A stretch of DNA of 64,000 nucleotides from NCBI RefSeq assembly GCF_003334255.1, contig NZ_QOWU01000021.1; one strand, 5' to 3'. The notes under the pieces were generated by a model. It had not been told where the DNA came from. It was given only the letters and a program-made list of their open reading frames with translations, and searched no databases. Positions 45,740-45,756 of this stretch are shown here, piece after piece. Within the stretch, counting starts at the first letter, position 1; each line of letters opens with the position of its first letter. Origin of the DNA: Escherichia coli (GTDB lineage Bacteria > Pseudomonadota > Gammaproteobacteria > Enterobacterales > Enterobacteriaceae). Both the position numbers and the translations under genes were made by a program.

Positions 45740-45756
45740 CGCACCACTCTTGCCAG
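45740..45756 (-). promoter_or_regulatory. candidate sigma-54 (-24/-12) promoter upstream of ygfK: TGGCAAG-N4-GTGCG
   Basis: minus-strand TGGCA (plus tgcca 45751-45755) and GC of -12 (plus 45741-45742) at canonical spacing, about 70-80 bp upstream of ygfK ATG. Confidence 0.3.

Follow-up and report, generated by a model that had tools for sequence, protein, structure and literature searches.

A conserved sigma-54 promoter and a candidate YgeV enhancer ahead of the ygfK operon in the uric-acid cluster of Escherichia coli

In the classical sigma-54 promoters glnAp2, hypA-hycA and pspA, a -24/-12 element with its GG and GC is held in a silent closed complex, and an AAA+ activator (NtrC, FhlA and PspF, respectively) acts by DNA looping from a dyad-symmetric UAS 100-200 bp upstream. 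The promoter of ygfK in Escherichia coli is predicted from its sequence to share the GG/GC element, the AAA+ activator and the layout with an upstream UAS. However, between UAS and promoter there is no IHF consensus but a CRP site that matches its consensus perfectly and a second conserved box, TCACR, and its -24 half in the Enterobacteriaceae is unusual (TGGTGC). In the Clostridiales, the sigma-54 activator DioR has been described with a regulon of dpaL, ygeW-ygfK-ssnA-ygeY, yqeB, yqeC-ygfJ, xdhABC and pbuX, in which the promoters read TTGGCAT-N5-TTGCT and UAS palindromes (ATTTATCAWWWTGATAA) are found 70-240 bp upstream (Nie et al. 2019, BMC Genomics, PMC6615313). The UAS motif is the same in E. 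coli, the spacing is similar and the genes are homologous, and a TCTCA/TGAGA variant occurs near yqeB in both systems. In contrast, the DioR regulon belongs to another phylum, UacX/UacY replace YgfK/YgeW in some of its species, and CRP sites play no part in it.

The window analysed here, a stretch of 64,000 nucleotides, is as a whole the xdh/ygeV/ygfK purine and uric-acid cluster of E. coli in reverse orientation. According to both the open reading frame and the RefSeq annotation, ygfK occupies 42560..45658 on the minus strand, with its ATG at 45658, and it is the first gene of ygfK-ssnA-ygfM-xdhD. Its product is an isoxanthine reductase, and the operon encodes the steps of reductive dearomatisation in the uric-acid pathway of gut bacteria. 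This pathway is repressed by glucose and is now being engineered for gout therapy (10.1101/2025.05.19.654654).

A sigma-54 promoter ahead of ygfK is already known, as it was published in 2010 and again in 2015, and the finding as originally stated adds nothing new. Zhao, Liu & Burgess (2010, NAR, PMC2831329) predicted the promoter aaccTGGCAAGAGTGGTGCGATtgtt at -97..-80 and reported that ygfK rises 2.1-fold when sigma-54 is overexpressed and falls 2.4-fold in an rpoN mutant. [quoted passage not shown] The scope of that paper was sigma-54 occupancy, and transcription, activator and enhancer were outside what it showed. While the occupancy and the rpoN effect on ygfK have thus been demonstrated by others, genomic SELEX in vitro with the RpoN holoenzyme recovered the ygeV/ygeW spacer and not ygfK (PMC8743547), and the RpoN ChIP-exo paper does not mention the genes of the cluster. 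The additions of the present analysis are small: a choice between two conflicting published registers, a testable candidate for the E. coli YgeV enhancer that matches the clostridial DioR motif, and a natural ygeV allele without its DNA-binding domain.

Two overlapping registers ahead of ygfK

The conserved -24/-12 element, GTGGTGCGATTGTTGCT at 45747..45731 on the minus strand (GG at 45745-45744, GC at 45733-45732), is the same 17-mer as OS31, in the same orientation and at the same 62-nt distance, with no difference between the two. The original prediction had instead marked 45756..45740 on this strand (cTGGCAAGAGTGGTGCG / CTGGCAAGAGTGGTGCG), which lies 9 bp further upstream and is identical to the promoter of Zhao et al. 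2010. Two registers 9 bp apart are beyond what ChIP-seq resolution alone can separate. The marked string is present with a canonical GG and GC (45754-45753 and 45742-45741, offset 12 nt), and its claimed place about 70-80 bp upstream of ygfK is roughly right, the motif being at -98..-82 from the ATG at 45658 with an implied start ~72 nt upstream.

Scoring with a sigma-54 PWM (46 published ChIP-seq sites, the four sites inside the window left out) separated the two registers. The downstream one has 2 mismatches to TGGCACN5TTGCW, with canonical GG/GC spacing and TTGCW in its -12 half, and at 12.0 bits it takes rank 6 of ~128,000 positions; three of the six window sites with at least 12.0 bits are the ChIP-confirmed ygeW, xdhA and ygfK sites. 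Known sites have a median of 16 bits, which it does not reach because -23/-22 is TG instead of CA. The upstream register, with 3 mismatches to the same consensus, reaches 9.5 bits and rank 32, which is chance level: 37 sites in the window score 9 bits or more, and 9.5 bits are attained by 3.9% of shuffled 400-nt upstream regions. Even 2-mismatch matches occur in the window at chance frequency (48 vs 43.5±5.8 expected).

Judged by comparison across species, the conflict between the two published registers is settled. We observed that the orthologue of the downstream 17-mer is the best sigma-54 match upstream of ygfK in 80 of 80 loci from 24 genera (11-19 bits), when at least 11 bits were found in only 1.7% of shuffled regions and on one of the 80 antisense strands. 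The element is invariant within Escherichia, and the promoter module travels with ygfK although the gene upstream changes (mocA, yqeB, yqeC, ghxQ, xdhC or uacT). The flanks of the 17-mer, including the -24 half of the upstream register, have at most 0.6 bits per column among the 80 ygfK loci. Of 80 other species, 76 lack the upstream register itself at the corresponding position. The median score at the homologous offset is -14 bits, with 6 bits or more confined to the four sequences nearest to the window, and the register varies within Escherichia (CTGGCAAT in E. coli E69, CTGGTAAG in E. whittamii). What looks like its -12 (GTGCG) belongs to GTGGTGCG, the -24 half of the conserved element. 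The promoter of Zhao et al., placed 9 bp upstream of the ChIP-seq/MEME motif, here lacks conservation and scores no better than chance. The original prediction was staked on conservation in orthologous intergenic regions, which is missing for the register it marked and is kept by the downstream one. While a sigma-54 element upstream of ygfK was rightly inferred, the exact element and coordinates were wrong, since the working element is 9 bp downstream.

It could be argued for the upstream register (TGGCAAG-N4-GTGCG, 45755..45740) that it has an invariant GG and GC at correct spacing and the better -24 half (TGGCA), that it was proposed alongside the rpoN microarray effect (PMC2831329), and that it is intact in typical E. 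coli, with the 9-bp shift falling below ChIP-seq resolution. That this is the functional E. coli promoter, with a start ~9 nt further upstream, is nevertheless very improbable when its score of 9.5 vs 12.0 bits at chance frequency and the choice of the other register by MEME are set beside its absence in 76 of 80 species against 80 of 80 for the downstream one. In addition, no other stretch of the intergenic region varies as much as the one holding its -24 half, even within Escherichia, and the fixed -37 spacing of a TCACR box is held relative to the downstream register. We also see little chance that both overlapping registers bind the sigma-54 holoenzyme in Escherichia and that the upstream one modulates occupancy as a lineage-specific second or competing site. 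The two matches have a common GTGGTGCG core at their 9-bp offset, and the ygfK ChIP signal (FAT 26) is fairly strong for a 12-bit motif, but the upstream half appears to be free of selection and variable among Escherichia lineages, and scores of 9-10 bits turn up ~37 times per 64 kb. It is likely that ygfK-ssnA-ygfM-xdhD is transcribed from the sigma-54 (RpoN) promoter at 45747..45731 on the minus strand, through the mechanism with YgeV and the palindrome proposed below, and that the upstream register is not the functional one. The match at 45740-45756 is probably a chance match overlapping the real element.

From the position of the -12 GC, transcription is predicted to start at ~45720, in agreement with the "distance 62" in Table 1 of PMC4591121, and would give a 62-nt 5' UTR (45659..45720, minus strand) with a Shine-Dalgarno sequence (AAGGAGAGGG) at 45670-45661. 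No mapped ygfK start was found in the literature accessible for the survey. A riboswitch or leader structure was rejected, because the Rfam scan of 45400-46100 matched no RNA family and the fold of the 5' UTR is no better than that of shuffles (z = +0.75).

A candidate enhancer palindrome in the cluster

The candidate UAS, cATTATCATAATGATAAgg at 45913..45931, has its centre 175 bp upstream, counted from the first base of the 17-mer, or at ~-202 from the predicted start. Read as 45931..45913, it is a perfect TATCA-N3-TGATA within TTATCA-N3-TGATAA; a spacing of N5 (TATCA-N5-TGATA) is wrong and N3 is correct. The palindrome sequence proposed as the predicted YgeV target is TTATCATAATGATAA. The palindrome is found with no more than one mismatch in 79 of 80 ygfK loci, and its centres are at -154/-155, -167, -175/-176 or -187/-188 in 73 of the 79. 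These distances (154.5, 167, 175.5 and 187.5) do no more than suggest helical phasing. Counted in helical turns they are only approximately whole multiples apart, differences of 21 and 33 bp fitting whole turns and that of 12.5 being a poor fit, and the lineages cannot be counted as independent. Twenty bp downstream of the UAS centre is the conserved block cTGATTTTGAGAAA (45894..45907, minus strand), which may be a degenerate second activator site, an assignment made from the Vibrionaceae, where a good second palindrome stands 19 bp downstream of the first.

A PWM for the UAS was trained on ygfK loci alone, with E. coli and its three closest relatives left out. It gave 21.7 bits for the ygfK UAS, the best match in the window, and only six matches of at least 10 bits in the 64 kb, the top four of which fall in the four intergenic regions where sigma-54 ChIP peaks were seen (xdhA, ygeW, ygfK and ygfT; PMC4591121). 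The ygeW element (CTGGCACACTTATTGTT, 55547..55563, minus strand; OS30) is the top-ranking sigma-54 site of the window with 16.0 bits, and its UAS at 55761-55779 (centre -207) scores 18.1 bits with the ygfK-trained PWM and 17.8 bits with a PWM of DioR sites. The xdhA element (CTGGCGTAAATCTTGCC, 61475..61491, minus strand; OS29, experimentally confirmed in EcoCyc) has 14.2 bits and rank 3, with a UAS at 61607-61625 (centre -125; 15.0 and 12.8 bits, respectively), and the ygfT site (TATGCCCGTTTATTGCA, 30724..30740, plus strand; OS32) has one at 30543-30561 (centre -172; 18.6 and 20.7 bits). Measured from the sigma-54 elements of ygfK, ygeW, xdhA and ygfT, the palindrome thus stands 125-207 bp upstream, and a conserved copy precedes yqeB. 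The pattern is likewise present in Klebsiella (5 of 5 matches in three intergenic regions), Aeromonas and Endozoicomonas. The palindrome at 47303-47321 was rejected as a conventional upstream enhancer of PyqeC, the intragenic yqeC sigma-54 promoter IS34 (47062-47078) being upstream of it.

The identical enhancer-plus-promoter module before ygeW, xdhA and ygfT suggests that the uric-acid and purine cluster is one regulon. The YgeV iModulon includes ygfK, ssnA, ygfM and xdhD together with the sister operons (PMC10602906, PMC12133099), and ygfT expression is lowered in a ygeV mutant according to work cited in PMC10602906, while Reg-Seq gave no consistent footprints for the YgeV iModulon. The original prediction had suggested one RpoN/YgeV regulon over three operons. 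The regulon is supported by the ChIP peaks, the iModulon and the common palindrome, but three operons are too few, since ygfT/uacT is a member and yqeB probably is too.

YgeV and its clostridial counterpart

The presumed activator gene ygeV (55932..57542, plus strand) belongs to the cluster, and the Sigma54_activat and HTH_8 domains of YgeV make it the candidate cognate AAA+ enhancer-binding protein. In the present genome a 7-bp tandem duplication at 57523-57536 truncates the protein to 536 aa, so that the HTH_8 domain (residues 548-587) is lost. As YgeV lacks its DNA-binding domain here, the ygfK promoter may be uninducible in this strain.

The alignment of YgeV with a DioR-type protein of Clostridia runs over the full length (39% identity, E = 3e-142), and the segment LGIGIATLYRKI of the HTH domain is identical in the two. 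The clostridial partner in this comparison is a DioR-type homologue from a search of representatives, rather than a protein under the locus tags given by Nie et al. 2019; a homologue search beyond the representatives had yielded copies from E. coli and Shigella alone. The clostridial gene adjoins uricolytic genes (dpaL/ygeY/amidohydrolase/DHO_dh/RidA) and has the same palindromes upstream. On this alignment, YgeV is the orthologue of clostridial DioR. The ygfK UAS CATTATCATAATGATAAGG is near-identical to the published clostridial DioR site ATTTATCATAATGATAAGG, and a PWM from the published Clostridiales UAS sites has its top three matches in the window at ygfT|uacT, ygeV|ygeW and mocA|ygfK, the last with 17.2 bits. 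That the palindrome matches the DioR enhancer motif and that DioR aligns with YgeV supports a single YgeV regulon. However, Aeromonas, Morganella and Photobacterium have no activator gene at less than 10 kb from ygfK, and in Aeromonas none was found across the whole cluster. We found no report of this motif for E. coli YgeV in the literature. It is fairly probable that TATCA-N3-TGATA (13 bp) is the E. coli YgeV enhancer, and that the module of activator, enhancer and promoter is almost letter for letter the same in Clostridia, with DioR, and in Gammaproteobacteria.

CRP site, promoter architecture and implications

Between the UAS and the promoter are three further elements. The conserved block GTGATTTTAATTCTCATT (45833..45850, minus strand) includes a TCTCA half-site. 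The sequence TGTGAgttcatTCACA at 45810..45825 is a perfect CRP-consensus site, the sole CRP match without mismatch in the window; its centre is ~-97.5 from the predicted start, and a site with at most two mismatches is found at this fixed position in 42 of 79 loci. The proximal box TTCGAgccgccTCACA (45780..45795, minus strand) has the pattern TTCGA-N6-TCACA, with TCACR at a fixed -37/-38 from the 17-mer, exact at this position in 57 of 79 loci, the fixed spacing being kept relative to the downstream register. The xdhA promoter also has TCACA at -37. A CRP/FNR-like half-site and a bending site are the candidate roles for this box. An IHF site between UAS and promoter was not supported, WATCAANNNNTTR being exact in one of 79 loci and having 2 mismatches in E. 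coli.

The perfect CRP site, the presence of ygfK among the CRP genomic-SELEX targets (PMC3105977) and the glucose repression of the pathway could also mean that sigma-54 binds but contributes little, and that most ygfK expression comes from mocA read-through or a CRP-dependent sigma-70 promoter. Indeed, ygfK responded modestly to changes in rpoN, by 2.1-2.4-fold under non-inducing conditions (PMC2831329), and Bonocora et al. stress that a bound site is not the same as an active promoter (PMC4591121). Still, we regard this as improbable. A scan of 45500-46200 found no sigma-70-like -35/-10 on the ygfK strand, and read-through of the mocA type is excluded because divergent neighbours are upstream of ygfK in some loci. 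Moreover, the -24/-12 element and the enhancer are jointly conserved across 24 genera and move with ygfK as the upstream gene changes, and the homologous clostridial operons are sigma-54/DioR-dependent as well (PMC6615313).

For the favoured sigma-54 promoter with its distant activator, we propose that RNA polymerase with sigma-54 would sit on the 45747..45731 element as a closed complex. The AAA+ protein YgeV, which we infer to bind the palindrome at 45931..45913 (~175 bp upstream) and probably weaker neighbouring half-sites, would loop to this complex and open it. With no IHF consensus present, the bend is probably supplied by the CRP site at 45825..45810 together with the TTCGA-N6-TCACA box, and these would probably also link the promoter to catabolite control. 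Transcription would then begin near 45720 and produce the 62-nt leader.

The correct register and the activator site indicate which bases to mutate or replace, and they also account for the silence of the cluster in ordinary cultures. If the YgeV enhancer is as proposed, the anaerobic uric-acid pathway would have spread along with its regulatory circuit, and in enterobacteria the architectural role of IHF would be taken over by the conserved CRP site.

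Register of the sigma-54 promoter of ygfK

The mocA-ygfK intergenic region (321 bp; mocA stop at 45980, ygfK ORF at 45658..42560 on the minus strand) lies in the reverse-strand Escherichia coli cluster xdhABC-ygeV-ygeWXY-hyuA-yqeABC-mocA-ygfK-ssnA-ygfM-xdhD-...-ygfT-uacT, for which the RefSeq annotation of one matching complete E. coli genome served as the gene map. A 601-nt query around the candidate element had matches with 95-100% identity in 5,172 of the 5,426 complete genomes of E. coli. In strain E1739 (NZ_CM180506.1) an IS1B element is annotated inside the matched mocA-ygfK region, and in strain SE11 (NC_011415.1) mocA is annotated as frameshifted.

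The original prediction placed a -24/-12 element at 45756..45740 (minus strand), reading CTGGCAAGAGTGGTGCG. The string is real and has GG and GC at canonical spacing, though it is a weak match, with three mismatches to TGGCACN5TTGCW; two-mismatch matches to this consensus occurred in the window at chance frequency (48 versus 43.5 ± 5.8 expected). A second match from the consensus scan, TGGTGCGATTGTTGCT (45746..45731), overlaps the first with a shift of 9 bp downstream, and its -12 half, TTGCT, is perfect. We scored the window with a 17-column weight matrix built from 46 intergenic ChIP-seq motifs of Bonocora et al., the four from this window excluded. The downstream register (45747..45731, minus strand) reached 12.0 bits and rank 6 of approximately 128,000 positions, the ChIP-confirmed ygeW and xdhA sites ranking 1 and 3, whereas the marked register had 9.5 bits and rank 32, at least 9 bits being found at 37 window positions. 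The GTGCG read as its "-12" belongs to the -24 half, GTGGTGCG, of the downstream element. High scores were observed also at 10851-10867 (+; CTGTCGCGATTTTTGCA, 14.5 bits, with GT replacing GG), 6463-6479 (+; CTGGCACAGGCACTGCG, 12.4 bits) and, within yqeB, 48208-48224 (+; CTGGCAGAAATATTACA, 12.2 bits), and these are probably chance matches.

Both registers have been published. In the work of Zhao, Liu & Burgess (2010; PMC2831329), ygfK rose 2.1-fold when sigma-54 was overexpressed and fell 2.4-fold in the rpoN mutant; the promoter predicted there, aaccTGGCAAGAGTGGTGCGATtgtt at -97..-80, is exactly the register marked in the original prediction. Bonocora et al. (2015; PMC4591121) detected a ChIP-seq peak at ygfK (OS31, fold above threshold 26) with the MEME motif GTGGTGCGATTGTTGCT, 62 nt from ygfK and flagged as an EcoCyc predicted promoter, and further sigma-54 sites at xdhA (OS29), ygeW (OS30) and ygfT (OS32). 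A YgeV iModulon was defined in the PRECISE-1K study, and according to a Reg-Seq preprint its genes include xdhABC, ygeWXY, hyuA, ygfK, ssnA, ygfM, xdhD, ygfT and uacT; consistent footprints were absent for this iModulon in the 2026 Reg-Seq preprint, and ygfK was not among the targets recovered by in vitro genomic SELEX with RpoN holoenzyme. Because of the 2010 and 2015 studies and the PRECISE-1K iModulon, neither a sigma-54 promoter of ygfK nor a joint RpoN/YgeV regulon is new, and the outline of the original interpretation thus holds (ChIP-seq, rpoN effects, iModulon) while the element itself was misplaced.

The registers were then compared between species, as the original prediction had suggested. 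The 80 ygfK loci used were taken from species-representative genomes and cover 24 named genera, including Escherichia, Citrobacter, Klebsiella, Kluyvera, Edwardsiella, Morganella, Serratia, Aeromonas, Photobacterium, Vibrio, Shewanella, Ferrimonas and a Rhodoferax MAG. When the 400 nt preceding ygfK were scored, the highest sigma-54 matrix value in every one of the 80 loci fell on the orthologue of the downstream register, of the form YTGG[C/T]NNGAWWGTTGCW (11-19 bits, 66-171 nt before the ATG); among controls, at least 11 bits was reached in just one of 80 antisense strands and in 1.7% of shuffled regions. At the offset of the marked register the median was -14 bits, and at least 6 bits was seen only in the four sequences nearest the window. 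Its -24 half varies within Escherichia (CTGGCAAT in E. coli E69, CTGGTAAG in E. whittamii and, reported among the Escherichia variants, TTGGCAAG in 'Citrobacter' sp. MGH106), and the downstream 17-mer is invariant there. The 17-mer has 1-2 bits of information per column, also at spacer positions that earn no score in the matrix, compared with at most 0.6 bits over this -24 half. The promoter module also stays with ygfK where the upstream gene is not mocA but yqeB or yqeC (divergent), ghxQ, xdhC or uacT. A lack of conservation in orthologous loci, named in the original prediction as evidence against the element, thus applies to the marked register and not to the downstream one; conservation supports 45747..45731 as the functional register.

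It is therefore unlikely that the register predicted by Zhao et al. is the functional one, and use of both registers also has a low probability. A third possibility, that sigma-54 binds the region without driving most of the ygfK expression, is similarly improbable: a scan of the ygfK strand found no sigma-70-like promoter. Conservation, the choice of MEME on the ChIP-seq peaks, the fixed spacing to the upstream boxes and the lack of a sigma-70 promoter count against all three. The 62-nt ygfK leader had no Rfam family and no unusual structure.

Conserved boxes and a shared palindrome upstream of the promoter

Anchoring all loci on the 17-mer (positions relative to its first base) revealed several conserved blocks. 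In a TTCGA-N6-TCACA box (45780-45795) TCACR is fixed at -37/-38 in 57 of 79 ygfK loci, and at the E. coli xdhA promoter a TCACA (61524-61528) likewise occupies -37. A perfect CRP consensus, TGTGAgttcatTCACA at 45825..45810, is the sole zero-mismatch CRP match in the window and is centred approximately -97.5 from the predicted start, between enhancer and promoter; a CRP site with at most two mismatches was found at a fixed position in 42/79 loci (about half of the species). The CRP genomic-SELEX target list includes ygfK, and a pathway paper mentions glucose repression as well as a native CRP site between ygeV and ygeW. As no IHF consensus is present upstream of ygfK, CRP may act as the bending factor between enhancer and promoter. 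Beyond the CRP site come the block GTGATTTTAATTCTCATT (45850..45833) and then, more distally, TGATTTTGAGAAA, and the outermost one is a perfect palindrome, TATCATAATGATA (45928..45916).

This palindrome (TATCA-N3-TGATA, 0-1 mismatch) occurs in 79/80 ygfK loci, the remaining one being cut off. In 73 of these 79 the centre falls into one of four main classes, at -154/-155, -167, -175/-176 or -187/-188 relative to the 17-mer, and in Vibrionaceae a second copy follows 19 bp downstream of the first. Matches with at most two mismatches are enriched in the window (39 versus 20.8 ± 4.3 expected; none of 100 shuffles reached 39). An enhancer matrix trained only on ygfK loci outside E. coli and its three closest relatives reached 10 bits or more at just six positions in the 64 kb. 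The four best, in mocA|ygfK (21.7 bits), ygfT|uacT (18.6), ygeV|ygeW (18.1) and actS|xdhA (15.0), coincide exactly with the four intergenic regions where ChIP detected sigma-54. Measured from the respective 17-mer, the palindromes lie at -175 (ygfK), -172 (ygfT), -207 (ygeW) and -125 (xdhA). In Klebsiella, all five matches of at least 9 bits (21 kb) are in the ygeV|ygeW, yqeB|ygfK and ygfT|uacT spacers, each of which also carries a sigma-54 match. In Aeromonas the palindrome and a sigma-54 element precede ygeW and palindromes also precede xdhA, and Endozoicomonas has both motifs at ygeW and at ygfK. The palindrome is probably an enhancer common to the sigma-54 promoters of the cluster, and presumably the YgeV site.

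Similar sites were observed elsewhere. The fifth-best match to the enhancer matrix is a perfect palindrome within yqeC (47303-47321, TTCTCACATTGAGAA). It precedes the yqeB start (47479) by 158-176 bp and follows PyqeC (47062-47078), a published intragenic sigma-54 promoter, by approximately 220 bp. A similar site precedes yqeB by approximately 160-170 bp, inside yqeC, in Aeromonas and Morganella, and by 67 bp in Klebsiella. Another perfect palindrome, TATCAAGATGATA (53917-53935, 13.6 bits), is within the ygeX/dpaL coding sequence, with no visible sigma-54 element. In a Klebsiella grimontii-like contig (L084) the sigma-54 match of the ygfT|uacT spacer, TTGGCACAGCTTACGCA (19673-19689), faces uacT, whereas the published E. 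coli site faces ygfT.

YgeV and clostridial DioR

In their reconstruction of the sigma-54 regulons of Clostridiales, Nie et al. (2019; PMC6615313) defined the activator group DioR, with the targets dpaL-pyrC-argE, ygeW-ygfK-ssnA-ygeY, yqeB, yqeC-ygfJ-yqeB-xdhC, hyp-xdhABC and pbuX. Upstream activating sites of DioR in the supplementary table (e.g. ATTTATCATAATGATAAGG, ATTTATCAAAGTGATAAGT and TATTATCATTTTGATAATA) lie 70-240 bp upstream of TTGGCAT-N5-TTGCT promoters, and TCTCA/TGAGA variants are listed too; among the published DioR sites is ATTCTCGAATTGAGAATA at C. difficile yqeB. The E. coli ygfK palindrome, CATTATCATAATGATAAGG, is their counterpart. A matrix from 19 published clostridial sites alone ranked ygfT|uacT first, ygeV|ygeW second, mocA|ygfK third and xdhA sixth in the E. 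coli window.

YgeV consists of a weak GAF-like region, PAS, sigma-54 AAA+ and HTH_8 domains, and beyond Gammaproteobacteria the full-length proteins most closely related to it are clostridial. One of these, P0129, aligns with YgeV end to end (39% identity, E = 3e-142) and has an identical segment, LGIGIATLYRKI, in the helix-turn-helix domain; its gene adjoins dpaL, ygeY, an amidohydrolase, a DHO-dehydrogenase-type reductase and RidA, and the same palindromes lie upstream. From these sequence comparisons we infer that YgeV is the enterobacterial DioR and the palindrome its predicted binding site, a statement not found for E. coli in the literature.

In Aeromonas veronii, Photobacterium and Morganella morganii (L082, L086-L089) ygfK has the sigma-54 promoter and the palindrome, and the ygeW and xdhA regions of Aeromonas likewise carry the motifs. 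No sigma-54 activator gene was found within 10 kb of ygfK in these three, nor across the whole cluster in Aeromonas, and therefore the regulator must be encoded elsewhere.

Proposed activation and the truncated ygeV allele

We propose that sigma-54 holoenzyme sits as a closed complex on 45747..45731, as published ChIP-seq shows for occupancy and conservation supports for the register, with transcription predicted to start near 45720, in agreement with the distance of 62 in the ChIP-seq table. YgeV bound to the palindrome, perhaps together with weaker neighbouring half-sites, would loop to the holoenzyme and lead to the open complex, as suggested by the behaviour of the family, the motif common to these promoters and its fixed spacing. 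CRP and a factor at the TCACR box could shape the intervening DNA and couple expression to carbon status, which is consistent with the conservation of the two sites, the presence of ygfK among the SELEX targets and the glucose repression described for the pathway.

The ygeV gene of this genome (55932..57542, plus strand) has a 7-bp tandem duplication (CAGAGGT CAGAGGT, 57523-57536), and the resulting frameshift ends YgeV at 536 instead of 592 aa, before HTH_8 (residues 548-587). This segment is present in 5,272 complete genomes of E. coli, all of which lack the duplication. Because the exact 536-aa protein is recorded on 95 public contigs (CAM2909736.1, CUK02112.1), the truncation is a natural lineage allele and not an artefact. 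To the known regulon our analysis thus adds a resolved register, a predicted E. coli YgeV enhancer matching that of clostridial DioR and a natural ygeV truncation. In case YgeV is the activator, the sigma-54 promoters of the cluster may be poorly inducible or non-inducible in this strain.
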